Notes: a model not told the origin generated them from the sequence alone. 32,000 bases of DNA from Geotalea daltonii FRC-32 (GCF_000022265.1 NC_011979.1:600001-632000); one strand, 5' to 3'. Positions 5,591 to 23,840 are shown, counted from the first letter of the stretch. Translations and numbers: made by a program.

Positions 5591-6955
5591 TCAGGATCTT
5601 TCGATACCGAACTTCTCCAGGCGGTACTGGAGTGTCTTATAGCTCATTCCCAGAAGCGGCGCCGCCTTGCTGATGATGCCGTCGGCCCGTTCCATGGCTT
5701 TGATGATCAGATCCCGCTCCAGTTCCTCGATGGAAATCCCCTGTGGCGGAAATTCAAAAGGGAGTTTGGTGATATTGGCCATCTCTTCGTGGACTTCGGC
5801 AGGCAGGTCCTCCGGCAGGATCTGGTCCGATTCCGCCATGAGCACCCCCCTCTCGATAACCGATTCAAGCTGCCTGACGTTTCCCGGCCAGCTGTAATTC
5901 ATGAGTATCTTCAAGGCCGGCTTCGATATGCCATTCAAGGCAATGCCGGAAGCGGCGCTGTACTTCTCGAGGAAGAAATCTGCCAGGGTGGCGATATCGT
6001 TACCCCGCTCCCGGAGCGGCGGCAGTGTCACCCGAATGACGTTCAGACGGTAGAACAGGTCCTCGCGAAAGTTCCCTTTCTTGATCTCCGCTTCCAGATC
6101 CCGGTTGGTGGCCGAAATGATACGGACATCGATGGGAATATTGACCTTTCCTCCCACCCGCCGGATCTCCTTTTCCTGGATGGCGCGCAGGAGCTTTGCC
6201 TGCATGGCCACATTCATCTCGCCGATTTCGTCGAGAAATATGGTGCCCCCTTGGGAAGCCTCCAACAGACCGATTTCCCGGCTGGCAGCGCCGGTAAAGG
6301 AGCCTTTTTCATGGCCGAAGAGTTCGCTTTCAATGAGGGTGTCGGGAATGGCGGCGCAGTTGATGGCAAAAAATGGTTTGTCACGGCGGGGGCTGCCATC
6401 GTGAATGGCCTTGGCCACCAGTTCCTTGCCCGTTCCTGATTCGCCATAGATAAGGACGGTGGAACTGGTGGGAGCGATTTTGCCGATGATGCGGGCCACT
6501 TCCTTTATTTTCGGATGTTCTCCGATCATGTTGGAGATGGCCATGGTTTCTTTCAGCTTTCTGTGAAGCACGGCGTTTTCATGGAGAAGACCTATATGTT
6601 CGAAGGCCCGCTTGACGGTCAGAAGCAGGTCCTCGCGTTCCAGCGGCTTTTCCAGGTAATCGAATGCTCCCTTCTTCATGGCTTCCACGGCAGAGTCGAT
6701 GGTGCCGTGGGCAGTCATCATGACCACGCACTGGCGATTGTTATCTGTCAGCAGAGTTTCCATGAGTTCCATGCCCGACATCCCTTGCATCTTCAGGTCG
6801 GTAAGAATAAGGTCGAATTCCTTGTCCGCAAGCTCTGCCAGCGCTTCCCTTGCACCGGGCACCGCTGCAGTAGCATATCCCTGCTTCTGCAGAATGGCGG
6901 TAAGAATATCTCGCTGTCCCTTTTCATCGTCTACTATCAAAATGCTACCCGACAT
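5591..6955 (-). CDS. Sigma-54-dependent response regulator (NtrC family: REC + AAA+ + Fis HTH)
   Basis: ILIVDDE...DLILTDLKM receiver, GESGTGKE Walker A, GSFTGA loop and a C-terminal HTH. Confidence 0.9.
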   Translation of the reverse strand: MSGSILIVDDEKGQRDILTAILQKQGYATAAVPGAREALAELADKEFDLILTDLKMQGMSGMELMETLLTDNNRQCVVMMTAHGTIDSAVEAMKKGAFDYLEKPLEREDLLLTVKRAFEHIGLLHENAVLHRKLKETMAISNMIGEHPKIKEVARIIGKIAPTSSTVLIYGESGTGKELVAKAIHDGSPRRDKPFFAINCAAIPDTLIESELFGHEKGSFTGAASREIGLLEASQGGTIFLDEIGEMNVAMQAKLLRAIQEKEIRRVGGKVNIPIDVRIISATNRDLEAEIKKGNFREDLFYRLNVIRVTLPPLRERGNDIATLADFFLEKYSAASGIALNGISKPALKILMNYSWPGNVRQLESVIERGVLMAESDQILPEDLPAEVHEEMANITKLPFEFPPQGISIEELERDLIIKAMERADGIISKAAPLLGMSYKTLQYRLEKFGIERS

Positions 6956-6981
6956 ATGTTCTCCTGAAAAGAGCCTGACGC

Positions 6982-8430
6982 TTAAATTTGTTCATAGCCC
7001 GCATTCTGGGGTTTTTTCACCGGCAGGACCATGGTAAAGGTGGTACCGCTGCCCACGGTACTGTTCACCCTGAGTTCGCCGCCGTGTTCCCTGACGATTC
7101 TTTCCGTAATGGCGAGCCCCAGGCCTATTCCCGCTTCCTTGGTGGTGAAATAGGGCTGAAATATCTTGCCGATGTCACCTGCGGCGATGCCGGCTCCTTG
7201 GTCGGCAAAGGTGAGGATGAATCGCTTTTCCTCTGGGGCAAATGCTGCTCCAAGGGTGATGGTGCCCCCTTCGGGCATGGCTTGGGCCGCATTGGTGATG
7301 AAATTGAAAAGGCAGTTGCGCATCAGTTCGGCATCCACCTGCATGGCGGGCAGGTCTGCCGGGATATCCATCGCCACCCGGATACGCTGTTCGTCAAGCT
7401 TGTCCTGTAGCAGAGGCAGCGCCTTGCCGATCAAATCGGCATAACGTACCTCGCTGGTGCGCAGTTTCAGTGGCCGGCCGTAATTCATGAAATTCAGGAC
7501 CATGTAATTGGCTTTGCGCACCTCTTCCTTGATGTTGTCGGTGATCGCCTCCAGCTCCTTGCTCCGCTCCGGGCAGGTGGGGAGCAGTTCGCTTTTCAGG
7601 TGGTCGATGGCAAGGCTGATGTAGTTGAGTGGATTTCTGATTTCGTGGGCGATGCCTGAGGCCAGCTGTCCTACCTTGGAGAGATGCTCCGCTTCGTAGA
7701 GACGTTTTTCCAGGTTTTCCCGTTCCCGCAATTTTTCCACCATCTCATTGAAACTTTTGGCAAGTTCGCCGATCTCATCCTTGCTTTCCACGGGAAAGGT
7801 CACCGACAGATCCCCCGCAGATACCTTTTTTACCCCGGCTGCCAGCCGGTTGATAGGGGTGGTATACCTTCTGGCCAGAAAAAAGGTGAGGAGGATGCCG
7901 AAGGAAAAAACCATGCAGGTGGCAACCAGACGGCGGATGAAGTTGGCGTGCTGGATGTCGCGGATATTGTCCAGGAGCAGGTTGATCTGTACATATCCCA
8001 GTTGCTCGTCGCCGACAATGACCGGGACTACCAGGTCATAGGGGCGAAGGGACGGTGAAACGCCGGTGATCTTCCCTTTGTGGGAGGCCTTAAGGCCTTT
8101 CTCCAGCTTTTTTATTTCACGCTTTTTGCCGACCTTTTCCGGGTCGGAGGAGTTGATAATCTCCCCTTCGTTGCTGATGATGTTTATTTCGTTGATGCCC
8201 TTGTTTCTGGCCTGTTGAAAGTAGTCCTCGAGGCGGGAGGATTCGCTCTCTTCCTCCGAAGTGAGATCCTCGACACTGATCTGGATGGCTTTGGATACTT
8301 CGGTGGAGCTTTCCTGCATCTCTTGCACCAGATCGTTCTGGCTGAACTGATTCATGATGAAGAGAATCAAGGTGGCGATGACGAGAAGGGTGAGCATCAT
8401 TGCCACCAGCTTGGTATTGAGTTTCATCAT
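6982..8430 (-). CDS. Membrane sensor histidine kinase (2 TM, periplasmic loop, HAMP, HisKA, HATPase)
   Basis: GIAHEIRNPLN H-box, a HAMP segment (PINRLAAGVKKVSAGDLS) and G-boxes (DQGAGI, GLGL). It sits 26 nt upstream of the cognate regulator gene. Confidence 0.85.
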   Translation of the reverse strand: MMKLNTKLVAMMLTLLVIATLILFIMNQFSQNDLVQEMQESSTEVSKAIQISVEDLTSEEESESSRLEDYFQQARNKGINEINIISNEGEIINSSDPEKVGKKREIKKLEKGLKASHKGKITGVSPSLRPYDLVVPVIVGDEQLGYVQINLLLDNIRDIQHANFIRRLVATCMVFSFGILLTFFLARRYTTPINRLAAGVKKVSAGDLSVTFPVESKDEIGELAKSFNEMVEKLRERENLEKRLYEAEHLSKVGQLASGIAHEIRNPLNYISLAIDHLKSELLPTCPERSKELEAITDNIKEEVRKANYMVLNFMNYGRPLKLRTSEVRYADLIGKALPLLQDKLDEQRIRVAMDIPADLPAMQVDAELMRNCLFNFITNAAQAMPEGGTITLGAAFAPEEKRFILTFADQGAGIAAGDIGKIFQPYFTTKEAGIGLGLAITERIVREHGGELRVNSTVGSGTTFTMVLPVKKPQNAGYEQI

Positions 8431-10487: not shown

Positions 10488-10512
10488 ATAGCCTCAAAAT
10501 TGAATAGTTAAC

Positions 10513-10680
10513 TTGGTGCGCCGGTATCGGTAGATACGGCGTTAAAAGGGAAGGAGGTGCGATTCCTCCACTGTCCCGCAACTGTGAACGGTGATGAAAG
10601 CCGCTTGATGCCACTGAGATATTCGGGAAGGCGCGGCAAGTAAAGTGACCCGTAAGTCAGGAAACCTGCCAGGTTGACCG
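10513..10680 (+). promoter_or_regulatory. Cobalamin (AdoCbl) riboswitch aptamer
   Basis: The conserved blocks occur in order: AAAAGGGAAG, GGTGCGATTCC, CTGTCCCGCAACTGTGA, GCCACTG, GGGAAGGCG and the B12 box AGTCAGGAAACCTGCC. It lies upstream of the cob genes. Confidence 0.9.
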
Positions 10681-10739
10681 CTGAAAAAGGATCCTCCGCA
10701 GGAGAGGAGCCGAAGCCTTTTGTCATACCACGGTTTCGA

Positions 10740-11290: not shown

Positions 11291-11343
11291 CAGCTCCGTT
11301 CAAACAATGAACAAATTAAATGCAAAATGTGGAGGAGATAATC

Positions 11344-12408
11344 ATGAGTTTGATCGATGACACCCTGGAGCAGATCAAGGCGGTGGACCCAGCCCTGCTG
11401 GCGGAGGCCCAGGTGGTACTGGACAACAAGACCAAGCCTCCGGGGTCTCTGGGGCGGCTGGAAGAATTTGCCAGACGTTATGTGGCCATAATCGCCGATC
11501 CGGAGAATTCCGATTTGGAACTGCTGGGGACGAAGGTTGTTTATACTTTTGCCGCCGACCACGGTGTCGTTGAAGAGGGGATCTCGCTATATCCCAAAGA
11601 GGTGACCCAACAGATGGTGCTCAACTTTCTCAATGGCGGGGCAGGGGTCAATGTCCTTGCCCGCCATGTGGGGGCTGAGGTGCGGGTGGTTGATATCGGT
11701 GTCGATTACTATTTCGGCATGGTGCCTGGACTGGTGGTGCGCAAGGTGGCAAGGGGCACAGCCAACCTGGCTCAAGGTCCGGCCATGACAAGGGAACAAG
11801 CGGTGGCGGCCCTGGAAGTGGGGATTGGCCTGGCAGCGCAGGCCAAGAAAACCGGCGTGACCATGCTCGGCACCGGCGAGATGGGGATCGGCAACACTAC
11901 GCCGTCGTCGGCTATTATTGCCGCCATCTCGGGGAAGACGGTAAAGGAGGTGACCCACCGGGGCACCGGTATCAACGATGCTGCCCTGGAGAACAAGATC
12001 CGCGTCATCGAGCAGGGGCTGGCGGTGAACAAGCCCGACCCGAAGGACCCTATCGATGTGCTGGCCAAGGTGGGGGGGCTGGAGATAGCCGGCATCGCCG
12101 GGCTCATTCTTGGCGCAGCCGCCAATCGCATTCCGGTCGTCGTCGATGGCTTCATCTCCACTGCCGGGGCGCTCATCGCCAGCGAACTCAATCCCCATGT
12201 GAAAGACTACATGTTCGCCGCCCATGAGTCGGTGGAGATCGGCCACAGTTTTATGCTGCAACACATCGGACTGAAGCCGATCCTTGACCTGCAGCTGAGG
12301 CTGGGTGAAGGGACCGGCGCCGCGCTGGCCATGGGGCTGATCGAAGCCGGGGTGAAGATATACAAGGAAATGGCCACCTTTGCCGAGGCCGGGGTAGCTT
12401 CAGAATAA
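11344..12408 (+). CDS. cobT: Nicotinate-nucleotide--dimethylbenzimidazole phosphoribosyltransferase
   Basis: [11 protein letters not shown]..., GEMGIGNTT and LGEGTGA motifs. The ATG at 11344 is preferred (GGAGGAG SD 6 nt upstream) over the ORF-track start at 11320. Confidence 0.9.
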
Positions 12409-13151
12409 TGCTGCGGCTTTATTTCGTCGCACTGCAGTTTCTGGCCATCATCCCCATCCCCTTTTCCTTCCGCTGCAGGGAGGAAGACCTGGGGCGCTCC
12501 ATGTCCTTTTTCCCTCTGGTGGGGCTTACCCTGGGGCTTTTGCTGGCCGGCTGCGACTATCTCCTTGCCTTGGCACTGCCACGACCGGTTGCCGATCTTC
12601 TTCTGGTGGCCATCCTGGCATTGGTGACCGGTGCCCTGCATCTGGACGGCCTGGCGGATGTCTGCGACGGTCTGGCGGCGAGAGGGGGACGGGAGCGGTT
12701 TCTGGCGGTGATGAAGGATTCACGGGTCGGCGCCGTTGGGGTAGTGGGCCTGGTGCTGGCGCTGCTTCTGAAATACCAGGCACTTTTTGCCGTTACCACC
12801 GACAAATGGGAGACACTGCTGTTTTTCCCCATGGTGGCGCGCTTCAGCCAGGTGCAGCTCACGGTCGGCTCGAAAAGAGCCAGGCAGGATGGACTCGGCT
12901 CACTATTCATCGGCGGGGCCGGTTCCATGCAGGTTGCGGTTGCGGCGTTTTTCACCGTTGTTACCGGCTGGCTGTTGCTGGGGCTGCCGGGCATCGGCTG
13001 TGCTGCAGTATGCTCTCTTTTTACCTGCCTGGCCAAAGCCTGGTTTCACCGAAAGCTTGGCGGCATTACTGGCGATGCCATTGGCTGTGTCAGCGAACTC
13101 AATGAAATCCTGTGTCTGATGACACTTGTTGCCATAGGAGGAAGATTTTGA
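12408..13151 (+). CDS. cobS: Adenosylcobinamide-GDP ribazoletransferase (cobalamin synthase)
   Basis: 247-aa polytopic membrane protein with HLDGLADxxDG and GGxTGD motifs. TAATG overlap with cobT. Confidence 0.9.
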   Translation: MLRLYFVALQFLAIIPIPFSFRCREEDLGRSMSFFPLVGLTLGLLLAGCDYLLALALPRPVADLLLVAILALVTGALHLDGLADVCDGLAARGGRERFLAVMKDSRVGAVGVVGLVLALLLKYQALFAVTTDKWETLLFFPMVARFSQVQLTVGSKRARQDGLGSLFIGGAGSMQVAVAAFFTVVTGWLLLGLPGIGCAAVCSLFTCLAKAWFHRKLGGITGDAIGCVSELNEILCLMTLVAIGGRF

Positions 13152-13750
13152 CAGGAAGGACACGTGTATACCTGATCCGGCACGGAGAGGTGGAAGGTGC
13201 CGACACCCGCCGTTACAACGGCCACGCCGATGTGGGGCTGTCGGAGTTCGGCATCGCCCAGTATCAGTCACTCAAAGGACGCTTCGACGATGTGCGGATC
13301 TCGGCCTGCTACTGCAGCGATCTGACCCGCTGCGTCATTGGGGCGGAGATGCTCGGTACACACCTGGGAGTGACGCCGGTAAAAAACAGCAATCTGCGGG
13401 AGCTGAATATCGGCATCTGGGAGCGGATGACCTGGACCGAGCTGATGGAGAAATATCCGGTGGAATGGCAGGCGCGCCTGGACGATATTGTCAATTATCG
13501 GGTGCCCCAGGGGGAGAGCCTCCAGGACATGAATGACCGGGTGATGCCGGTAATAAAAGATATCGTACAGCGCCATCAGGGGGAGGATGTACTGGTAGTG
13601 GCTCACGGCGGCGTCAACAGGGTGATCCTTCTCAATGCCATCGGGGCGCCTCTATCTTCACTTTTCAATATCGAGCAGAGCTACTGCGGTTTCAATATCA
13701 TCGATTATTATGCCGACGGCAAGGCTGTCGTCAAGCTTGTCAATGGATAG
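13148..13750 (+). CDS. cobC: Alpha-ribazole phosphatase (histidine phosphatase family)
   Basis: [11 protein letters not shown] motif. The TTG at 13148 has an AGGAGG SD 6 nt upstream and overlaps the cobS stop (TTGA). The ORF-track ATG at 13112 would lie inside cobS. Confidence 0.8.
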
Positions 13751-13751
13751 C

Positions 13752-15146
13752 ATGAAATCGATCATCATTGCTGCGCCGCAAAGCGGCTCGGGCAAAACCA
13801 CAATTACCCTCGGCATCATGGCATGCCTTCGGCGAAGGGGTCTGCAGATTGCCCCCTTCAAGGTCGGCCCCGATTTCATCGATCCGGGCTATCACCGGCT
13901 GGTGGCCGGCCGGCCTTCCATCAACCTGGACGGCTGGATGTGCGGGGCTGATTTTGTCCGCGAAACTTTTACCAGCCATGGGTCAGGAGCTGATATGGCC
14001 GTAATCGAGGGGGTGATGGGGCTCTTCGACGGCATCGGTGAAAACGGCGACGAGGGAAGTACGGCTCAGGTCGCCCGGTTGACCGGCTCGCCGATTGTCC
14101 TGGTGGTGGACGCCGGTCGCATGGCCGGAAGCGCAGCCGCTCTGGTGAAGGGATTTGCCGAATTCGACCCCCAGGTGAATCTGGCGGCGGTCATCTTCAA
14201 CAATGTGGCCGGCGACAACCATGGCCTCCTGCTGAGGAAGTCAATGGCCGCGGCCCTGCCGAGGGTCAAGGTCCTCGGTTGTATCGGCCGTGACGAAAGG
14301 CTGCATATCCCTTCCCGCCATTTGGGGCTCTTGACGGCAGAGGAAAACCCATTGTCCCCCGGCTTTCTCCAGCATTTGGTGGAGACCGTGGAGCGCTGCC
14401 TGGATGTGGATTTTCTTTGCCACCTTTCCTGCACCCATTCACATGATATTGGGAAGCCAGGCGATGTAATGGAAGATCAAGGCGCCGGGAACCTTGTCCC
14501 CATTGCCGTTGCCAGGGACGAAGCCTTCTGCTTTGTTTATGAAGACAACCTGCGGCTTCTGCGGGAGGCCGGCTGCGAAATCGTCGAGTTTTCCCCCCTG
14601 CGGGACCGTGCCCTTCCCGTCGGCATCGGCGGTATTTACCTGCCGGGAGGCTACCCGGAAATCTTTGCCGAGAGCCTCGCGGCAAATGCGCCCATGAAAG
14701 AGGCGATCCGCGCAGCGGTCGAAAAGGACATGCCGGTTTATGCCGAATGCGGCGGCTTTATCTATCTGACCAGAGGGGTCATGGATACCAACACCGAAGC
14801 CGGATCGATCCATGATTTTGTCGGCATCTATCCCGTGACCACCCGCATGCTGCCTCGCCGCAAAGCCCTTGGCTACCGCGAAATTATCACCCAGCAGGAT
14901 TCCATACTGGGCAAGAGGGGACTTTCGACCAGGGGACACGAATTCCACTATTCAGAGATGGCTGAACTGCCTGAAAGCATAGATCGCCTCTATCGGGTGC
15001 GAAAGCTGGAAACAGAGCTGGGAGCGGAAGGCTACCGCTATAAAAACTGCCTCGCCTCATACATCCATCTGCATTTCGGTAGCTGTCCGGAACTGGCGGC
15101 GGCATTTGCGGATAATTGCAGAAAATTCAATGGGAGTTGTTCCTGA
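13752..15146 (+). CDS. cbiA: Cobyrinate a,c-diamide synthase (CbiA/CobB)
   Basis: [21 protein letters not shown]...[11 protein letters not shown]-terminus and a C-terminal glutamine amidotransferase region (YAECGG). The start is 13752 or 13743. The ORF-track start at 13635 overlaps cobC in another frame. Confidence 0.85.
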
Positions 15147-15164
15147 CCCAACCAAGGAGATACC

Positions 15165-16472
15165 ATGAGAACCCAGATCGAACTAGCCCGTGAGGGCATC
15201 ATCAGCACCCAGATGGCCACCGTTGCAAAGGATGAAGGGTTTTTACCGGAATACGTGCGGCAGATGGTGGCGGAGGGGAAGATCGTCATCCCCTGGAACC
15301 ACGGCCGGAAACCGAAAGCGGTGGGAATCGGCAAGGGACTGCGCACCAAGGTAAATGCCTCAATCGGCACTTCTTCCGATATTGTCGACTACGCGGCCGA
15401 GGTGCGTAAGGCAAAGGCAGCCCAGGAATCGGGGGCCGATACCCTGATGGAGCTGTCGGTCGGGGGAGACCTGGACCGGGTGCGCCGGGAGGTGATTGCT
15501 GCGGTGGATCTGCCAGTGGGAAATGTTCCCCTCTACCAGGCCTTTTGCGAAGCGGCCCGCAAGTATGGCGATCCCAACAAGCTGGACGAGGAGATGCTTT
15601 TCGACCTCATCGAGAAGCAATGCGCCGACGGCATGGCGTTCATGGCGGTTCACTGTGGCATCAACCTTTACACTATAGAGCGGCTGCGCAAACAAGGATA
15701 CCGCTATGGCGGGCTGGTCTCCAAAGGGGGGGTCTCCATGGTCGCATGGATGCTGGCCAACAACCGGGAGAACCCCCTCTACGAGAAGTTCGATCGGGTG
15801 ACTGCCATCCTGAAAAAGTACGACACGGTGCTTTCTCTGGGCAACGGTCTCCGGGCCGGAGCGATCCATGATTCGAGCGACCGCGCCCAAATCCAGGAGT
15901 TGCTCATCAACTGCGAGCTGGCAGAGATTGGCCGGGATATGGGCTGTCAGATGCTGGTCGAAGGTCCGGGCCATGTGCCCCTGGACGAGGTGGAGGGGAA
16001 CATTCAGCTGCAGAAACGCATGAGCGGCGGCGCACCCTACTACATGCTCGGTCCCATCTCCACCGATGTGGCCCCGGGCTTCGACCATATCACCGCCGCC
16101 ATCGGCGCCGCCCAATCGAGCCGTTTCGGCGCTGACCTCATCTGTTACATCACCCCTGCCGAACATTTGGCCCTCCCCAACGAGGAGGATGTACGCCAGG
16201 GTGTGAAGGCAGCCAAGATCGCCGCCTATATCGGCGACATGAACAAGTATCCGGAGAAGGGGCGACAGCGGGACATGGAGATGTCCAAGGCCCGTCGCGA
16301 CCTGAACTGGGAGAAACAGTTCGAATTGGCTCTGTATCCGGAGGACGCCCGGGCGATCCGCGCCAGCCGTACGCCGGAAGATGAAGCCACCTGCACCATG
16401 TGCGGTGATTTCTGCGCCTCCCGCGGGGCGGGAAAGCTGTTTGCCGGAGATTTGCGCGGAGACAAGATCTGA
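15165..16472 (+). CDS. bzaF: ThiC-family radical-SAM enzyme; operon context indicates 5-hydroxybenzimidazole synthase BzaF (automated pipelines would call it ThiC)
   Basis: 435-aa ThiC-like sequence with GIGKGLRTKVNASIG, VEGPGHVP and a C-terminal CTMCGDFC cluster motif. It is the last gene of a B12-riboswitch-controlled cobUTSC-cbiA operon, and no TPP riboswitch precedes it. Confidence 0.7.
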   Translation: MRTQIELAREGIISTQMATVAKDEGFLPEYVRQMVAEGKIVIPWNHGRKPKAVGIGKGLRTKVNASIGTSSDIVDYAAEVRKAKAAQESGADTLMELSVGGDLDRVRREVIAAVDLPVGNVPLYQAFCEAARKYGDPNKLDEEMLFDLIEKQCADGMAFMAVHCGINLYTIERLRKQGYRYGGLVSKGGVSMVAWMLANNRENPLYEKFDRVTAILKKYDTVLSLGNGLRAGAIHDSSDRAQIQELLINCELAEIGRDMGCQMLVEGPGHVPLDEVEGNIQLQKRMSGGAPYYMLGPISTDVAPGFDHITAAIGAAQSSRFGADLICYITPAEHLALPNEEDVRQGVKAAKIAAYIGDMNKYPEKGRQRDMEMSKARRDLNWEKQFELALYPEDARAIRASRTPEDEATCTMCGDFCASRGAGKLFAGDLRGDKI

Positions 16473-16485
16473 GGTGAAAAAATTC

Positions 16486-16591
16486 AGCCACGAATAGCAC
16501 GAAAGTTCACGAATAAGAGCAAAGCGTGAAAGAAAAATATGTGGTTGTGCTTCGGTTTGACTATTCGTGTTAATTCGTGACATTCGTGGCT
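16486..16591. repeat. Long imperfect palindrome built from 3+3 phased CACGAAT heptamers, between bzaF and cbiM
   Basis: CACGAA(T/A) at 16489, 16498 and 16508. ATTCGTG at 16563, 16573 and 16582. The arms pair as 10+6+8 bp around a ~44-nt centre. Confidence 0.7.
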
Positions 16592-16610
16592 AAAAGATTT
16601 GAGATTCATA

Positions 16611-17369
16611 ATGAAAAAAATCCTGTTATTTACAATTTTAATGCAGCTTATTGCTGCCCCTGCCCATGCCATGCACATCAGTGAGGGGCTACTGCCACTG
16701 AACTGGGCGCTCTTCTGGTTCATGGCCGCGGCGCCTTTTGTCGCCCTTGGCGTGCGTCAGCTGAATAACCTGGCAAAAACCGATCTGGCGATGAAACCGC
16801 TGGTGGGGCTGATGGCTGCTGTTGTCTTCATCGTCTCCTGCATGCCCATCCCGGTCCCCACCGCCGGCACCTGTTCCCATCCCTGCGGAACCGGCATTGC
16901 CGCTATCCTTGTCGGGCCTTTGGTCAGCGTTGTCATCAGTGCCGTGGCCCTTCTGCTCCAGGCACTGTTTCTTGCCCATGGCGGCCTTTCCACCCTGGGG
17001 GCGGACATTATTTCCATGGGGGTGGCCGGCTCCTTTGCCGGCTGGCTAATCTTTCGGGGCCTGCGTAAAATCAGTGTCAACTTGGCCGTAGCTGCTTTTT
17101 TCGGTGGTCTCTTTACGGACTGGGCCACCTATCTGACCACCTCCATGGAGCTTGCTGCCGGCATCAGGGGGACGGCGCCTTTCTGGCCGCTCGCGGCAAA
17201 AATCGTCCTTGCCTTCATCCCTACCCAGTTGCCGCTGGGCATTCTGGAAGGAGCCATGACCGCCGGCATGGTTACTCTGCTACAGCGCAAGCGCCCGGAC
17301 CTGCTGGTGAAGATGCGGGTACTGAAGGAAAGCGAGGTCGTCCATGCCTGGAAAAAAGCGCAGATATAG
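16611..17369 (+). CDS. cbiM: ECF-type cobalt transporter substrate-capture subunit CbiM
   Basis: A signal-like leader ends in AHA, directly followed by the MHISEG motif (metal-binding N-terminus of CbiM/NikM). Polytopic membrane protein. Confidence 0.9.
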   Translation: MKKILLFTILMQLIAAPAHAMHISEGLLPLNWALFWFMAAAPFVALGVRQLNNLAKTDLAMKPLVGLMAAVVFIVSCMPIPVPTAGTCSHPCGTGIAAILVGPLVSVVISAVALLLQALFLAHGGLSTLGADIISMGVAGSFAGWLIFRGLRKISVNLAVAAFFGGLFTDWATYLTTSMELAAGIRGTAPFWPLAAKIVLAFIPTQLPLGILEGAMTAGMVTLLQRKRPDLLVKMRVLKESEVVHAWKKAQI

Positions 17370-17643
17370 AATAATCCTGTTGCACATCATCCTGTTGCCC
17401 ACACTGCTCTTTGCCTTCTATTTCCTTACCCTGGCGCCCCACCCCTATGTGGGGGTGGATGAGACGGTGGTCGAGAAAATTGCCGTGGAGCATGGCCGCA
17501 AGGTGCATGAACCCCTCATCGATCCGGGAGAGGGAGATTTGCTGCTCTTTCTTTTTCTTGGAGCCGGTGCTGCGGGAGGTTTTGTGGCCGGTTATTACTG
17601 GCGCCGGTTGGGCGAGAAATCTGACCGGCATGGGGAAGGTTGA
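17344..17643 (+). CDS. cbiN: Cobalt transport protein CbiN
   Basis: 99-aa protein with two TM segments. It sits between cbiM and cbiQ and overlaps the cbiM 3' end. Confidence 0.75.
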   Translation: MPGKKRRYRIILLHIILLPTLLFAFYFLTLAPHPYVGVDETVVEKIAVEHGRKVHEPLIDPGEGDLLLFLFLGAGAAGGFVAGYYWRRLGEKSDRHGEG

Positions 17644-18398
17644 TGCGTCATACCCTGCAACAGATACAGGTCGCTGATCATCCCTTAAGTCGCTATGATG
17701 CACGGGTCAAGCTTCTGGCGGTACTGGCCCTGCTGACGATGGTGCTCAGCTACCGGGGGGCGGCTTTCCCCCTGCTGCTGAGCGCCCTTTCCATCGCCCT
17801 GTGTCTGAGCCTCAAGGTGAGGCCACGGTTGCTGATGCTTCGTTTTGCCCAGCCCCTTTTCTTTGCCGCGGTGATCGTCCTGCTCAAGCTGTTCACTACC
17901 GGTGCAGTTCCCCTTTTTACCCTGTCTGTCTGGGGAATTAATCTTATCGGCTACAGTGACGGATTGGGCGAAGGGTTGCTCATTGCCGGCCGGATCGTGG
18001 GGGCAGTTTCCCTGGTTGCCCTCCTCGGTTTTTCCACCTCCTTTACCGATCTGATTTCGGCCTTGGCCTGGTTTCGGGTGCCCCAGGGGGTGATCGAGGT
18101 GGCCCTGTTTGCCTGGCGTTACCTGTTCGTTCTCTTTGAAGATGCCATGGTGATATACAACGCCCAGAAGAACCGTCTGGGTTATGCGGGTTATCCCCAG
18201 GGGCTGCGTTCTTTCGGCACCCTTGCCGGCGCCATGGTCATAAAGGCCTTCGACAACAGCCAGACCATCACCACCGCCATGGTCCAGCGGGGCTACGACG
18301 GCACGCTGCCCCCCATTCGCCAGCAGCCGTTCAGGGGGCGGGAGGTGGCTGCAACATTATTGGTCGTAGCTGTTTTGGGAGTTATCTGGAATGTTTAG
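17643..18398 (+). CDS. cbiQ: ECF transporter transmembrane (T) component CbiQ
   Basis: Polytopic protein with ARxLxxR-like motifs (AQKNRLGYAG). TGATG overlap with cbiN. Confidence 0.85.
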   Translation: MRHTLQQIQVADHPLSRYDARVKLLAVLALLTMVLSYRGAAFPLLLSALSIALCLSLKVRPRLLMLRFAQPLFFAAVIVLLKLFTTGAVPLFTLSVWGINLIGYSDGLGEGLLIAGRIVGAVSLVALLGFSTSFTDLISALAWFRVPQGVIEVALFAWRYLFVLFEDAMVIYNAQKNRLGYAGYPQGLRSFGTLAGAMVIKAFDNSQTITTAMVQRGYDGTLPPIRQQPFRGREVAATLLVVAVLGVIWNV

Positions 18399-19239
18399 CA
18401 CCGACGTTCGTATTTCCGTGAGCCTGGAGAGTTTCAAGTATCCCGATGGGACTGTGGCACTGTCTGATATTCATCTCGAGATCGGCCGCGGCGAGTTCTG
18501 CGGCATCCTCGGCGCCAACGGCTCGGGTAAGACCACACTGCTGAAGATCATGGATGGCCTGATCAAGGACTACCAGGGGCGGGTGCTTCTGGATGGGGAG
18601 GAGGTGCACCGGCTCCACCCCAGGGATATCTACCGCAAGATGGGGCTCGTCTTCCAGAACCCCGATGATCAGCTCTTTGCCCATACCGTCTCTGAAGATG
18701 TGGCCTTCGGCCCCCGCAATATGGGCTGCGGCGAAAACGAGGTGAGAGGACGGGTCGCGGATGCATTATTGGCGGTGGAAATGTCCGAATTCGGCGGCAA
18801 GGGTATTCACCATCTGAGCTATGGCCAGAAAAAAAGGGTCTGCATCGCCGGTCTGCTGGCCATGGGACATGAAATCCTCCTGCTGGACGAGCCGACGGCC
18901 GGGCTGGACCCCATGGGCGAGTACCGGATGATGGAGCTTTTGACCAGGCTGAACCGGGAAAATGGCGTGACCATAGTCATGGCTACCCACAGTGTTGACC
19001 TGGTGCCGATTTTTCTCCACCGGCTGCACATTCTCAGCAGGGGCAAGCTGGTGAGGGGTGGGGTGCCGGAGGAGGTCTTCACGGCACCCGAGGAGATGGC
19101 CAATGTAAAGCTGAGGCTGCCACACATCGCCGAGTTGATCCACCGGCTCAAGCACGAAGACCTGCTCCCATTCGGCCGGATACCGCTGACCATCGGCGAG
19201 GCGCGGCGGGAGATCGTGGAAACGCTCCGGGAGCGCTGA
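18391..19239 (+). CDS. cbiO: ECF transporter ATPase CbiO
   Basis: GANGSGKTT Walker A, LSYGQKKRV signature and LLLDEP Walker B. Confidence 0.9.
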   Translation: MFSTDVRISVSLESFKYPDGTVALSDIHLEIGRGEFCGILGANGSGKTTLLKIMDGLIKDYQGRVLLDGEEVHRLHPRDIYRKMGLVFQNPDDQLFAHTVSEDVAFGPRNMGCGENEVRGRVADALLAVEMSEFGGKGIHHLSYGQKKRVCIAGLLAMGHEILLLDEPTAGLDPMGEYRMMELLTRLNRENGVTIVMATHSVDLVPIFLHRLHILSRGKLVRGGVPEEVFTAPEEMANVKLRLPHIAELIHRLKHEDLLPFGRIPLTIGEARREIVETLRER

Positions 19240-20763: not shown

Positions 20764-20896
20764 AAGGGTTCTGGCCGCAATGGGACGGGGCAATAACAGG
20801 TCAGCGCCCAGTTTTTTTGCACTTGCATGTATCCATGTGGAGCGTTAAACTATAATCAAAGATAAGAGTTGCGAGGGTCGTGAGATCCTCATTATG

Positions 20897-20937
20897 CCCT
20901 AGCTGACTTGCCCTCCTAGTCACTAGGGTGTTTTTTT
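20897..20937 (+). terminator. Orphan intrinsic terminator on the + strand with no upstream + strand gene
   Basis: ccctagctgact / agtcactaggg forms an 11-bp stem with a 1-nt bulge and a 9-nt loop, followed by TGTTTTTTT. Confidence 0.55.
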
Positions 20938-20962: not shown

Positions 20963-20980
20963 TGTGCCAATTCTTGCACA
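20963..20980. promoter_or_regulatory. TGTGCCAATTCTTGCACA, a half-palindromic site related to the palindrome at 23419-23436; it overlaps the putative -35 of the activator gene
   Basis: 14 of 18 positions are identical to TGTGCCAAGAGTGGCACA. Confidence 0.3.
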
Positions 20981-21002
20981 TTTTTCCTGATTAGTCTATG
21001 CT
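20974..21002 (+). promoter_or_regulatory. Candidate sigma-70 promoter of the hydrogenase-like sigma-54 activator gene
   Basis: TTGCAC (20974-20979), 17-bp spacer, TATGCT (20997-21002). Confidence 0.3.
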
Positions 21003-21037: not shown

Positions 21038-23302
21038 ATGGAACCTATCATAACCCTTACCGAGAAATGCAGAAAGTGCTACTCCTGCGTTCGCAGTTGC
21101 CCGGTAAAGGCGATCAAGGTGGAAAAGACCTTCACTGAAATCATCTTCGAGCGCTGCATTGGTTGCGGCAATTGCTTGAGTAATTGCCCCCAGCATGCAA
21201 AGGTTGTTACCGACAAGGTGGGGGTCGTGGAGAACCTGCTGGCCGGTGAGGAGCCTGTCATTGCGGTTCTGGGGTGTTCCTTTCCTGCCTTCTTTCATAC
21301 CTTTTCGGCCGGCCAGCTGGCAGCAGGCCTGAAAAAATTGGGCTTTGCCGAAGTACATGAGGGGGCAGCCGGGGTCGAGCTCATAGCGGCCGGATACGCC
21401 GAGGCCATGGAAAAAAGCAGCGAGGTGCTGATTTCCTCACACTGTCCGGCCATTGTCGATCTCATCGAGCGTCATTACCCGACCCTGATAAAGAACCTGG
21501 TGCGGGTCATCTCGCCGATGGTGGCGATTGGCCGTTTTCTGAAAACTGCCTATGGTCCTGAAGTGAAGGTTGTCTACCTGAGTTCCTGCATTGCAGCAAA
21601 ATTCGAGATTCAGGCGGAGGAAACCCAAGGCGCTATCGATATGGTTCTTACCTATCGGGAGATGGAAGAAATCTTCCTTAAGCGGGGAATTCTACCGGCT
21701 CTTCTGGCGGAAGATGCCTTCGACGGTCTGGAGCCCCATCTGGGAAGGTTGTTTCCCATTGCGGAAGGTACCTTCAAGGCCTTTTCCATTGCCACCGACC
21801 CCCTTGATACGGAAATCGTCACCGCTGCCGGAGAGGTTAATGCCATGGGAATCATCAAGGACCTGGCGGCAGGGCGTATCAATCCGCGTATTGTCGATAT
21901 ACGTTTCTGTTATGACGGCTGTATCGGTGGCCCCGGCAAGAAATCAGAGCTGACAGAGTTCTACAAACGAAACCTCATCATTGCCCATTTCAAAAACGAT
22001 GCTCCCTATCGCACTGCTTCCCATTACCAGGGGGAGCAAAAGCAGATTTCCCTCACCCGTTCCTTTACCGGCAAATACGTCAGGCTGAAGGTGCCGAAGG
22101 GGAGCGACGTCAAAAAGATCCTTCATGCCACCAACAAATTCACCCAGAAGGACGAACTGAACTGCCGTGCCTGCGGGTACCGGACCTGCCGTGAGTATGC
22201 GGTTGCCGTTTATCAAGGGCTGGCGGATCTGGAGATGTGTCTGCCCCATACCCTGCAGCAGCTGGTAGAAGACCGCGGACGGCTGATCGAGAAATACGAG
22301 CTGGCCAGGAGGGAGCTGGACCGGGAATATGGCGATGAATTCATCGTCGGTGACGATGGAGGGACCATAGAGGTGCTGGATCTTATCAAGCAGGTGGGCC
22401 CCACGCCGACAACGGTGCTGATCCGGGGAGAATCCGGTACCGGCAAGGAGTTGACAGCTAGGGCCATACACCGCTACAGCAAGAGAAACGACAAGCCGCT
22501 GGTGACGGTCAACTGTACCACCATTACCGATTCGCTCCTGGAAAGCGAACTCTTCGGCCACAAAAAGGGCGCCTTTACCGGGGCTATCATCGACAAGAAG
22601 GGCCTGTTCGAGGCAGCGGACGGCGGGACCATCTTTCTCGACGAGATCGGCGACATAACGCCGAAACTGCAGGCCGAGCTTTTGCGGGTGCTCGACTCGG
22701 GGGAGGTGAGGCCGGTCGGCGGAACCACCTCAAGGAAGGTTGATGTCCGCCTCATCGCCGCTACCAATAAGGAGCTTGAAACGGGAGTCAGGGACGGCTG
22801 GTTCAGGGAGGATCTCTACTACCGGCTCAATGTCTTCGCCATCACCATGCCGCCTTTGCGCAGCCGGGTCGAATCCATTCCTCTCCTGGCCCACCATTTT
22901 CTGGAAAAGGCCCGCAACAAGTTGAACAAGAGCATCATCGGCCTGGAAGACCGGGCAGTCAAGGCGATGATGCAGTACTCGTGGCCCGGCAATATCAGGG
23001 AGATGCAGAACGTCATCGAGCGGGCTGCTGTTCTTACCCACGATGAGATCATCAAGCTGGGCAACCTGCCGCTGGTTTTTGCCGAAAACTATGCAGAAGA
23101 GGCCGATGATGTGCCTGACCTGAGATCGTTCAAGCTGGAGCGCGAACCGCACGTGATGAGAGTGGAGAAGAAGCTTATCCAGCGCTATCTGGCAGATGCC
23201 GGCGGCAATGTGTCAAAAGCGGCACAACTTGCCAATATCCCCCGGAGGAGCTTTTATCGACTGCTGGACAAGCATGGCCTGAAGGGGCGGGGAGCTGACT
23301 AA
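21038..23302 (+). CDS. Sigma-54-dependent transcriptional activator with an N-terminal 2x[4Fe-4S] ferredoxin, an [FeFe]-hydrogenase-like domain and a 4-Cys Fe-S sensor module
   Basis: Sensor motifs: CRKCYSCVRSCP and CIGCGNCLSNCP; SSHCP, SSCIAAK and FCYDGCIGGPG; CRACGYRTCREYA...C. Output motifs: GESGTGKE, GAFTGA and a C-terminal Fis-type HTH. The ATG at 21038 is the only plausible start, because the TTG at 20936 overlaps the terminator T-run. Confidence 0.9.
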   Translation: MEPIITLTEKCRKCYSCVRSCPVKAIKVEKTFTEIIFERCIGCGNCLSNCPQHAKVVTDKVGVVENLLAGEEPVIAVLGCSFPAFFHTFSAGQLAAGLKKLGFAEVHEGAAGVELIAAGYAEAMEKSSEVLISSHCPAIVDLIERHYPTLIKNLVRVISPMVAIGRFLKTAYGPEVKVVYLSSCIAAKFEIQAEETQGAIDMVLTYREMEEIFLKRGILPALLAEDAFDGLEPHLGRLFPIAEGTFKAFSIATDPLDTEIVTAAGEVNAMGIIKDLAAGRINPRIVDIRFCYDGCIGGPGKKSELTEFYKRNLIIAHFKNDAPYRTASHYQGEQKQISLTRSFTGKYVRLKVPKGSDVKKILHATNKFTQKDELNCRACGYRTCREYAVAVYQGLADLEMCLPHTLQQLVEDRGRLIEKYELARRELDREYGDEFIVGDDGGTIEVLDLIKQVGPTPTTVLIRGESGTGKELTARAIHRYSKRNDKPLVTVNCTTITDSLLESELFGHKKGAFTGAIIDKKGLFEAADGGTIFLDEIGDITPKLQAELLRVLDSGEVRPVGGTTSRKVDVRLIAATNKELETGVRDGWFREDLYYRLNVFAITMPPLRSRVESIPLLAHHFLEKARNKLNKSIIGLEDRAVKAMMQYSWPGNIREMQNVIERAAVLTHDEIIKLGNLPLVFAENYAEEADDVPDLRSFKLEREPHVMRVEKKLIQRYLADAGGNVSKAAQLANIPRRSFYRLLDKHGLKGRGAD

Positions 23303-23418: not shown

Positions 23419-23436
23419 TGTGCCAAGAGTGGCACA
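23419..23436. promoter_or_regulatory. Perfect palindrome TGTGCCA-AGAG-TGGCACA; candidate enhancer (UAS) for the adjacent sigma-54 activator
   Basis: 7-4-7 perfect inverted repeat centred ~107 bp upstream of the -24 element at 23534. Confidence 0.45.
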
Positions 23437-23533
23437 AAATGTATACAATATGTGAGATGAGAGTGACACTGCGTGGTTAAGAAAGCGCGCAATTTCCAAT
23501 GGTTAGTGGAAGCATCCTGATGATTTTCTTCTT

Positions 23534-23549
23534 TGGCACGCATATGGCA
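23534..23549 (+). promoter_or_regulatory. Sigma-54 (-24/-12) promoter
   Basis: TGGCACGCATATGGCA has GG and GC at the exact consensus spacing (TGGCAC-N5-TTGCA, one mismatch). It lies ~55 nt upstream of the RHH ORF. Confidence 0.6.
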
Positions 23550-23603: not shown

Positions 23604-23789
23604 ATGGGCAGAATGAGAGAGAATCCACGTTATAACGTAATTTCCATGAGGATCAGCGATGAAGAGAGGGAAACCCTGGAGCAGATCGTCAGTACCACCA
23701 ACAGAAGCGTTTCCGATATCATGAGAGAGGCAATGGACCTTGTCAAGGAGCGTTTAGGCTCTTTGGAAATGGCCCGCAAAGCCGCCTGA
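23604..23789 (+). CDS. Small ribbon-helix-helix (CopG/MobC-like) DNA-binding protein, 61 aa
   Basis: An AGGAGA SD sits 7 nt before the ATG at 23604. The NVISMRISDEERETLEQIV...RSVSDIMREAM pattern reads as beta-strand, helix, helix. The upstream in-frame ATGs lie upstream of or within the sigma-54 promoter. Confidence 0.55.
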   Translation: MGRMRENPRYNVISMRISDEERETLEQIVSTTNRSVSDIMREAMDLVKERLGSLEMARKAA

Positions 23790-23810: not shown

Positions 23811-23840
23811 AAAAGAAGGCCGCATAAGCGGCCTTCTTTT
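23811..23840. terminator. Bidirectional intrinsic terminator shared by the RHH gene (+) and cysS (-)
   Basis: aaaagaaggccgc-ataa-gcggccttctttt is a perfect 13-bp stem with A/T runs on both sides. Confidence 0.8.

Follow-up and report, generated by a model that had tools for sequence, protein, structure and literature searches.

A probable one-component sigma-54 activator with a HydS-type, hydrogenase-derived Fe-S module upstream of hgtR in Geotalea daltonii FRC-32

Introduction

Can a hydrogenase fold report on H2 where [NiFe] hydrogenases alone, and no H-cluster maturases, seem to be present? This question is raised by a gene at positions 21038-23302 of a 32,000-nt stretch of the Geotalea daltonii FRC-32 genome (hereafter called the window; coordinates are counted from its first letter). 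The gene encodes a sigma-54-dependent activator, which an initial annotation of the window had described as being joined directly to a sensory [FeFe]-hydrogenase-like Fe-S module. This observation is confirmed here. According to our analysis, the gene is probably the Geotalea counterpart, by orthology, of one that in Geobacter lies upstream of hgtR and encodes an enhancer-binding protein (EBP). The product would be a one-component sigma-54 activator that receives its input through a hydrogenase-derived Fe-S module of the HydS type. We regard this interpretation as reasonable; its H2-specific form is an unproven hypothesis.

To our knowledge, the signal, the signalling step and the regulated gene are known for none of the sensory [FeFe]-hydrogenases (groups C and D), though these proteins have been studied heavily by spectroscopy. 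The hgtR-EBP family joins a measurable output (ATPase activity, open complex formation) to a defined DNA site and promoter and to a target with an H2 phenotype and a regulon in the tractable G. sulfurreducens. For the physiology of Geobacter, the activator would fill the vacant place at the head of the cascade by which the genes of the TCA cycle, NADH dehydrogenase and ATP synthase are shut down during growth on H2.

HgtR of G. sulfurreducens (GSU3364) is a 62-aa repressor similar to ribbon-helix-helix proteins, which acts on gltA, atpG, nuoA, gntR and other genes. Its monocistronic gene possesses a mapped RpoN-dependent -24/-12 promoter, is induced by H2 and is essential for growth on H2 (PMC2817479). 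In the same study, an iron-only-hydrogenase domain was noted in the EBP upstream of hgtR and H2 sensing was proposed (Ueki & Lovley, NAR 2010, PMC2817479), so that the idea of a hydrogenase-type EBP as H2 sensor is not new; it was published as a hypothesis in 2010. The remark was made as 'data not shown', without domain analysis, ligand analysis, binding site or distribution. The Geotalea locus exhibits the same fusion in the same place before a monocistronic -24/-12 hgtR, and invites the same hypothesis; nothing in it is different in kind (PMC2817479). The EBP seems never to have been characterised. A literature search for GSU3363, the locus tag of the G. sulfurreducens protein, revealed no mention, and none of a sigma-54/[FeFe] fusion was found in hydrogenase reviews. 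Thus, the statement of the initial annotation that no characterised example of this coupling is known still appears to be true, although the coupling itself had already been proposed.

Domain organization of the activator

The reading frame of the activator is open from a TTG codon at 20936 through the stop codon at 23302. Its start was set to the Met codon at 21038, where the N-termini of the orthologues (MEPI, MGPI, MQPI and others) coincide, which results in a protein of 754 aa. Residues are numbered from this Met. The gene and its domains are as follows:

21038..23302, plus strand: activator gene, 754 aa, probable orthologue of the Geobacter EBP upstream of hgtR (frame, Pfam, NCBIfam, orthologue alignment)
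21056..21199, plus strand: two ferredoxin-type CxxCxxCxxxCP motifs, two accessory [4Fe-4S] sites, aa 7-54 (Pfam Fer4, Fer4_10, Fer4_7)
21257..21934, plus strand: [FeFe]-hydrogenase H-domain, aa 74-299 (Pfam, PDB alignments, column statistics, fold match)
22163..22240, plus strand: C-terminal Fe-S motif C376-x2-C379-x4-C384-x16-C401, typical of HydS-type sensory hydrogenases (Pfam FeS PF04060)
22247..22345, plus strand: helical linker, aa 404-436, joining the Fe-S domain to the AAA+ domain (a helix at 402-410 ends the structural model; signalling role predicted)
22346..23104, plus strand: sigma-54 interaction AAA+ domain with lid, containing GESGTGKE and GAFTGA (Sigma54_activat, AAA_lid_14)
23162..23272, plus strand: Fis-type helix-turn-helix (HTH) DNA-binding domain (HTH_8)

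At the N-terminus, Fer4 and Fer4_10 matched aa 7-54, and the translation contains both ferredoxin motifs that had been listed for it (C11/14/17/21-P22 and C40/43/46/50-P51). A hydrogenase-like central region had been proposed and left to be checked by profile searches; Fe_hyd_lg_C matched it significantly at aa 74-299 (E 5e-45, 154 bits, model positions 3-245 of 245). The FeS profile PF04060 followed at aa 374-403 (E 3.5e-11). It covers a further cysteine block noted before, CRACGYRTC...C, in which C376, C379, C384 and C401 exhibit exactly the Cx2Cx4Cx16C spacing of HydS. The junction after this domain leads to HisKA or PAS in relatives.

The C-terminal part was matched by Sigma54_activat (aa 437-602, E 2.5e-67, model positions 2-167 of 168), AAA_lid_14 (aa 608-689, E 5.8e-24) and HTH_8 (aa 709-745, E 4.3e-08). 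A complete AAA+ domain with Walker A, the GAFTGA loop, which reads GAFTGA or GSFTGA in the orthologues, and a C-terminal HTH together identify the protein as a bacterial EBP. No Pfam match to REC, PAS or GAF was obtained for the activator, even at E<=1, in agreement with the earlier description of a complete sigma-54 AAA+ domain and a Fis-type HTH fused to the sensor module without any of these domains. No NCBIfam equivalog scored above its cutoff.

Ligands, fold and conservation of the H-site

Three motifs of the central region had been assigned to the ligand motifs of the H-cluster, and HMMER alignments with solved hydrogenases put all of them on the proposed columns. H135-C136 of SSHCP fall on the CC of TSCCP, C184 of SSCIAAK together with K188 and E190 on MPCxxKxxE, and C291/C295 of FCYDGCIGGPG on CxxGC. 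The four H-cluster cysteines C136, C184, C291 and C295 thus all occupy ligand columns, none being displaced; K188 corresponds to K358 of CpI. An AlphaFold model based on an alignment of 92 sequences (pLDDT 92.9, pTM 0.91) was preferred to one based on nine sequences, which reached a pLDDT of 52 and was discarded. In a PDB search, the predicted structure yielded solely [FeFe]-hydrogenases as top matches (E ~1e-22, TM 0.64-0.73), including CbA5H, DdH, T. kivui HydA, T. maritima HydA and CpI.

Database searches with the sensor module disclosed two sets of relatives. Members of the first contain the same sigma-54 fusion and are 51-88% identical, while the second and much larger set is fused to HisKA-HATPase (histidine kinase, HK) and is 37-43% identical over the full length. 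In 92 sequences from both sets, the four H-site cysteines and the four cysteines of the C-terminal Fe-S motif were invariant, the ferredoxin-motif cysteines were invariant or at least 90% conserved, and K188 was conserved in at least 90%; together with E190, the H-site cysteines and K188 may be called invariant or nearly so. All 16 cluster-ligating cysteines and the pocket signature have been kept across 52 orthologues in spite of identities as low as 51% (51-88%).

Three residues of this pocket are specific to the sigma-54 clade, namely H135 at the C299 column, S182 at the M353 column and R289 at the M497 column. The first ligand motif (L1) of the clade reads [ST][ST]HCP with His in 51/52 sequences, L2 reads S-[ST]-C and L3 D-x-R-F-C, Ser and Arg being present in 52/52 each. 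In CpI, the motif APS(V/F) hydrogen-bonds a cyanide ligand; at this position the clade reads G-[C/S]-S, where the alignment is less certain. Cys80 was considered as an essential extra cluster ligand and rejected, as it is Cys in 42 of the 52 orthologues and Ser, Gly or Thr in the other ten.

The module deviates from catalytic group A enzymes in all three motifs: L1 is SSHCPAI instead of TSCCPxW, with His at the C299 column and no Trp, while in L2 and L3 (MPCxxKxxE, ExMxCxxGCxxGGGQP) Met353 is replaced by Ser, Met497 by Arg and GGGQP by GGPGK, the Cys, Lys and Glu residues being kept. Its layout is that of the HydS type (groups C/D), comprising two N-terminal [4Fe-4S] motifs, four H-site cysteines and the C-terminal Cx2Cx4Cx16C motif, and, as in this type, Cys299 is not conserved and a small residue is found at M353. 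TmHydS (group C, M2f) and TamHydS (group D, M2e) share this organization, lack Cys299, vary at M353 and M497 and have the C-terminal motif in front of the output domain (PMC8163306, PMC10055695); TamHydS and the activator both have Ser at the M353 column. Unlike the activator, HydS proteins have PAS or no output domain and Ala/Ser or Leu at the C299/M497 columns, and M2e/M2f genes often lie beside a hydrogenase gene (PMC8163306). The PAS domain that follows the Fe-S domain in group C (M2f) is replaced by the sigma-54 AAA+ domain in our protein, and no HydS protein has been reported to carry His at the C299 column. Most closely related to the module are the HK-fused sensors (HydDB [FeFe] group C1-type), which have the same Fe-S domain and linker position but differ by their HisKA-HATPase output, by L1 [ST][ST]PCP and by Leu at the M497 column. 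Their H-cluster motifs have already been questioned by others (PMC11406978).

hgtR and its promoter region

Downstream of the activator gene, the following elements were identified:

23419..23436, plus strand: predicted upstream activator site (UAS), perfect inverted repeat TGTGCCA-AGAG-TGGCACA, centre 107 nt upstream of the -24 GG
23440..23447, plus strand: palindrome TGTATACA, matching the core of the published HgtR operator TTGTATACAGTATACTAA; putative HgtR binding site
23533..23549, plus strand: sigma-54 promoter TTGGCACGCATATGGCA (GG 23535-23536, GC 23547-23548), ~55 nt before hgtR (cross-species conservation)
23604..23789, plus strand: hgtR, 61-aa ribbon-helix-helix repressor, probable direct target of the activator (identity to NCBI HgtR; good ribosome binding site)
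23815..23840, plus strand: hairpin GAAGGCCGC-ATAA-GCGGCCTTC with T-run, terminator between hgtR and the convergent cysS (read from the sequence)

In the window, hgtR starts 302 nt after the activator gene. Its product is 100% identical to the NCBI entry 'hydrogen-dependent growth transcriptional repressor [Geotalea daltonii FRC-32]', and its termini (MGRMREN..., ...KAA) agree with the primers used for cloning of the G. sulfurreducens gene (PMC2817479). A 61-aa frame on the same strand, 160-300 nt downstream of the activator, was found in 37 of 55 loci. Thus, the activator has the attributes of the hgtR-linked EBP of Geobacter, a position directly upstream of hgtR with its RpoN-type promoter and an iron-only-hydrogenase domain (Fe_hyd_lg_C). 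The hairpin downstream of hgtR was not listed by a simple terminator scan; it fits the monocistronic transcription reported for G. sulfurreducens (PMC2817479).

The promoter at 23533-23549 was singled out because of its cross-species conservation alone, since a plain sigma-54 consensus scan of the window gave matches at chance level (17 vs 18.6 expected, <=2 mismatches). TTGGCA[CT]-N5-T[GA]GC[AT] was present in 35/35 analysable intergenic regions, 70-88 nt before the ATG, these regions being otherwise barely alignable. The GG-N10-GC spacing equals that of the G. sulfurreducens RpoN consensus (PMC2725144). In 32 of the same 35 activator-hgtR intergenic regions, we detected the UAS TGTGCCA-N4-TGGCACA with up to two mismatches. 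Its distance to the -24 GG is 94-96 or 103-109 nt, giving two classes about one helical turn apart, and this is the geometry expected for the predicted upstream activator site of an EBP.

The HgtR operator TTGTATACAGTATACTAA has the core GTATAC (PMC2817479). This hexamer occurred in 33/35 intergenic regions (2.6 expected), at fixed offsets beside the UAS, and was found directly 3' of the -12 element in 12 loci. Its location beside the hgtR promoter suggests that HgtR represses its own gene, an autoregulation which is not mentioned in the original HgtR paper (PMC2817479). Conservation and the hgtR experiments lend good support to a wiring that runs from the activator through the UAS and the sigma-54 promoter to hgtR.

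Distribution and gene neighbourhood

A scan of species-representative genomes revealed the sigma-54 fusion at 54 loci, all of them in Geobacterales or Desulfuromonadales, e.g. in Citrifermentans bremense, Geomonas silvestris, Oryzomonas japonica, Geobacter sp. OR-1 and Geotalea toluenoxydans. The HK-fused type was detected at 26 loci from many phyla. The DNA of the window is 96% identical to two Geotalea assemblies having the same gene order, and 743 of the 754 residues of the activator are identical to those of the protein in one such assembly.

The neighbourhoods (+-10 kb) of 55 sigma-54-clade loci, 939 kb altogether, and of 26 HK-clade loci were compared. HydA was encoded within 10 kb in 0/55 loci of the sigma-54 clade vs 15/26 loci of the HK clade (Fisher 9.5e-10), a HydE/G-like gene in 0/55 vs 9/26 (Fisher 1.2e-5). 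An adjoining catalytic hydrogenase, as expected for the HydS type, was hence found at none of the 55 loci, and hydrogenase maturase genes were detected neither in the 32-kb window nor within +-10 kb of the sigma-54-clade loci. HK-fused genes lie inside HydABC, response-regulator and HydE/HydG clusters in 20/26 loci; genes recurring there encode NuoE-like and NuoF-like proteins, HydA, response regulators, HydE-like/HydG-like radical-SAM proteins and aspartase.

The neighbours of the sigma-54 fusion are housekeeping genes that differ by subclade (cbiO/transglutaminase/cysS/che; RNase G/rsmB/rpe; ptsP/valS; yebC-ruvCAB). We rejected them as the regulon of the activator, i.e. the cobalamin/cbi operon, the transglutaminase-like gene, cysS and the che operon in the window and ptsP, RNase G, rsmB and ruvCAB elsewhere, because the context varies between subclades and only hgtR or a small RNA (sRNA, see below) stays adjacent. 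In 37 loci the activator and hgtR have remained paired in spite of differences in the wider surroundings.

Two minor observations were made in this survey. One metagenome-assembled genome (AlinenLipids_bin-4284) contains two activator paralogues, L016 and L028. Behind L028, hgtR follows after a 697-nt spacer with a duplicated GTATAC+UAS block, while L016 has neither hgtR nor the sRNA. Furthermore, 14/16 HydA enzymes encoded beside HK-type sensors (L056-L080, family-7) read TSCSPGW and not TSCCPGW at L1, with Ser at the cluster-ligating Cys column in an ungapped alignment; the same variant is seen in PDB 7q4v_A.

A candidate promoter of the activator gene and the atoC motif in its leader

Upstream of the activator gene, three elements were recognized:

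20844..20935, plus strand: atoC RNA motif (Rfam RF01733) in the activator leader (cmscan 99.1 bits, gathering score 50, E 5.5e-20)
20963..20980, plus strand: inverted repeat TGTGCCA-ATTC-TTGCACA, predicted activator-type site (conservation)
20974..21002, plus strand: candidate sigma-70-type promoter of the activator gene, TTGCAC-N17-TATGCT

A site with up to two mismatches to TGTGCCA-N4-TGGCACA was present in the 320 nt before the activator start codon in 46/50 loci, compared with 0.03 expected from shuffles. In most loci its 3' half-site is TTGCAC, which in the window (20974-20979) would serve as the -35 box as well. This half-site is followed at a distance of 16-18 nt by an acceptable -10 box in 23/46 loci; in many loci the box reads GTATAC(T), the core of the HgtR operator. 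The repeat at 20963-20980 was also considered as a sigma-54 promoter and rejected, having no GG at the -24 spacing. A site over the own -35 box, together with operator cores at the -10 box, suggests negative autoregulation of the activator, as in PspF or NtrC, plus feedback by HgtR. Two loops would then act on the circuit, one by binding of the activator to the site that overlaps the -35 box of its sigma-70 promoter and the other by binding of HgtR to the GTATAC cores in the hgtR and activator promoter regions.

In the literature, the atoC motif figures solely as an RNA of delta-proteobacteria with a probable cis-regulatory role (PMC2864571). With its 5' part, the Rfam model overlaps a -10 box of the sigma-70 type, TATAAT at 20851-20856. 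The RNA proper consists of a hairpin and a terminator-like hairpin (loop CCCUCCU) followed by a U-run; a terminator scan placed the stem of the latter at 20914-20928, in front of a T-run. In 12 loci belonging to the Geotalea/Geomonas/Citrifermentans subclade, nhmmer located the element in front of the orthologous gene, and promoter hexamers of the form TTGCxx-N16/17-TATAAT were seen in three of the loci (L002, L004, L005). Judging by these flanks, the 'unpaired 5' part' of the atoC model is a putative sigma-70 promoter. The RNA may be an attenuator or a free small RNA, the terminator loop CCCUCCU being similar to an anti-Shine-Dalgarno sequence.

A putative sRNA in place of hgtR

Fifteen Desulfuromonadales loci are devoid of hgtR (L033, L037-L048, L051, L054). 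They contain the UAS in one or, often, two copies and a canonical TTGGCAC-N5-TTGCT promoter, which is followed by a conserved element of ~95-110 nt (e.g. L038:12489-12612, L041:2625-2754). The element has no open reading frame, and ends with a strong terminator whose loop is CUCUCUCCCC. MAFFT and RNAalifold, applied to 14 sequences, recovered the terminator alone; a covariance model was seeded on six sequences. With this model, each of the 15 loci yielded one copy, and the remaining 1.38 Mb of searched sequence yielded none. Within the alignment fitted to the model, a procedure by which pairing counts lean towards structure, 96.8% of the cells pair and compensatory changes occur at 10 pairs, compared with 2.8 +/- 1.5 in shuffles and 0-2 in slid controls. 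The element had no match in Rfam. It looks like a sigma-54-dependent sRNA that has taken the place of HgtR. As far as the literature searched shows, the UAS, the double feedback, the atoC leader and this exchange appear to be undescribed.

In one Desulfuromonadales subclade (L033, L039-L042, L044, L051, L054), ptsP is the next gene after the activator/sRNA cassette. This gene encodes the GAF-containing EI(Ntr) of the nitrogen PTS and is classically linked to rpoN. The adjacency may be a coincidence or a functional link.

Discussion

The data can be combined into a tentative course of events. On H2 oxidation or strong reduction, electrons would reach the [4Fe-4S] cluster of the H-site and the C-terminal Cx2Cx4Cx16C cluster. 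Their route would be by way of the two ferredoxin-type clusters at the N-terminus; alternatively, given a di-iron subcluster, they would stem from cleavage of H2 at the H-site itself. The redox change may be relayed by the helical linker (aa 404-436), freeing the AAA+ domain to oligomerise. The activator would bind to TGTGCCA-N4-TGGCACA (23419-23436), ~107 nt upstream of the promoter, as comparative evidence indicates, and would drive sigma-54 RNA polymerase at TTGGCAC-N5-TGGCA (23533-23549) to transcribe hgtR, whose RpoN-dependent transcription was shown in G. sulfurreducens and whose promoter is conserved here. HgtR would repress gltA, nuo, atp and further genes of energy metabolism and biosynthesis and would be needed for growth on H2, both shown in G. 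sulfurreducens. The initial annotation had suggested a one-component H2/redox sensor that directly controls sigma-54 transcription. Direct control fits with the HydS-like module as the sole input and with the UAS and -24/-12 promoter in front of hgtR, while the case for direct sensing of H2 has been weakened by the missing linkage (0/55), the His/Arg pocket and the literature on [NiFe] enzymes.

What does the module perceive? There is, in our estimation, about an even chance that it is an Fe-S-only redox sensor which reports H2 indirectly, and we rate this somewhat likelier than a sensor containing a matured H-cluster. It is favoured because 0/55 loci contain a HydA or HydE/G-like gene within 10 kb, compared with 15/26 and 9/26 in the HK clade, and because H135/R289, which are near-invariant and clade-specific at the C299/M497 columns, flank the dithiolate bridge. 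It is also favoured because the described hydrogenases of Geobacter are [NiFe] (PMC2669807, PMC2825233) and the [FeFe] enzymes of Pelobacter are described as laterally acquired, and because repressor activity was present in acetate/fumarate-grown cells without H2 as well (PMC2817479), so that the signal is not strictly H2. The lack of linkage, taken together with this hydrogenase literature, hints at a possible absence of maturases; the H-site cysteines have been kept. In the eukaryotic hydrogenase-like proteins Nar1/NARFL (CIAO3), whose hosts have no HydEFG, the fold of a hydrogenase and its four H-site cysteines persist, and Fe-S clusters alone are bound. They are the model for an activator of this kind, from which they differ by their role in cytosolic Fe-S protein assembly, by near-canonical L1-L3 and by having no Cx2Cx4Cx16C domain. 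Moreover, Coppi is said to have reported no [Fe]-hydrogenase clusters in G. sulfurreducens in 2005. A further-reaching proposal, which we put forward tentatively and at slightly less than even chances, is that the module without a di-iron subcluster is an exapted Fe-S redox sensor whose H-site was rebuilt with His/Arg and which reads a low-potential electron pool filled by [NiFe] enzymes, and that the same cassette exchanges HgtR (Geobacteraceae) for a ~100-nt sRNA with an anti-Shine-Dalgarno-like loop (Desulfuromonadales). If this is true, the activator would correspond to Nar1, but in bacteria and coupled to transcription.

A genuine one-component H2 sensor, in which H2 binds to and directly reduces a complete H-cluster ([4Fe-4S] plus a di-iron subcluster), HydEFG being encoded elsewhere and His135/Arg289 tuning a slow sensor chemistry, is in our opinion less likely. 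The invariance or near-invariance of the four ligand cysteines, K188 and E190 would suit it, and so would the likeness to HydS, which bind the di-iron site without C299, M353 and M497, the location of the sister HK-fused clade inside HydABC/HydE/HydG clusters, and the induction of hgtR by H2 (PMC2817479). What speaks against it, besides the [NiFe] nature of the described Geobacter hydrogenases, is that no hydrogenase or maturase gene was found near any of the 55 orthologues in the 939 kb surveyed, that bulky basic residues occupy both columns flanking the bridgehead, that the exchange M497L in CpI led to a loss of proper di-iron integration (PMC10055695), and that repressor activity was seen also without H2 (PMC2817479). 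Several points nevertheless weigh against our preference for a redox sensor with Fe-S clusters only and against the circuit drawn above. The residues holding the di-iron site have been retained, namely the bridging C295, K188 (K358) and probably S81 (S232) and S159-P160 (S323-P324), and fit a true H-cluster equally well. TmHydS, too, is changed at the C299, M353 and M497 columns and nevertheless holds a di-iron site (PMC10055695), the nearest relatives, fused to HK, are physically linked to hydrogenases and maturases, and maturase genes could lie elsewhere in the genome, beyond +-10 kb. As to the circuit, the -12 element of the window reads TGGCA and not TTGCA, the atoC promoter hexamers of the window are spaced by 22 nt, and we infer that the activator binds to the UAS, that its ATPase is under redox control and that the feedback loops operate.

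The remaining probability falls to other ligands or to no sensing at all. In one alternative, a site-differentiated [4Fe-4S] cluster would sense CO, NO, O2 or sulfide, its pocket having been rebuilt with His, Arg and often Cys, and hgtR would depend on H2 only secondarily. This is compatible with three polar exchanges that are specific to the clade and lie in what was once the di-iron pocket (H135, R289 and, in 42/52, C80), and with the absence of hydrogen genes from sigma-54-clade loci. But nothing positive speaks for any alternative ligand, C80 is not invariant, and what is known of the output gene relates to H2 and to the status of the electron donor, so that we consider this alternative improbable. 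Still more remote is a vestigial or purely structural module in an activator that is constitutive or depends on a partner protein for its control. There are indeed EBPs, PspF among them, that lack a sensor and are regulated in trans; yet a domain in decay would not be expected to keep the 16 cluster cysteines and the pocket signature in 52 orthologues, and in 92 sequences when the HK clade is included.

Compared with known regulators, the activator resembles the HoxBC-HoxJ-HoxA system of Ralstonia eutropha and HupUV-HupT-HupR in that a hydrogenase-derived sensor steers an NtrC-family activator by H2; these cascades were cited as precedent by Ueki & Lovley (PMC2817479). They are composed of three proteins, a [NiFe] regulatory hydrogenase, a kinase and a response regulator, whereas one polypeptide with an [FeFe]-type module is present here, and their output is hydrogenase genes instead of a repressor of central metabolism. 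NorR, which was among the best NCBIfam matches for the AAA+/HTH part of the activator, likewise has a metal-centre sensor fused to AAA+ without phosphorelay. In contrast to the activator, NorR senses NO by mononuclear non-haem iron in a GAF domain and has neither Fe-S clusters nor a hydrogenase fold.

Further features of the window

A second, conventional sigma-54 system is encoded at 5591-8430 on the minus strand. It consists of a REC-AAA+-HTH response regulator and a HAMP-HisKA-HATPase kinase and adjoins an alpha-glucan phosphorylase gene. Furthermore, a cobalamin riboswitch (RF00174, 126 bits) was found at 10497-10687, upstream of the genes cobT-cobS-cobC-cobQ-thiC-like-cbiMNQO (11320-19239).

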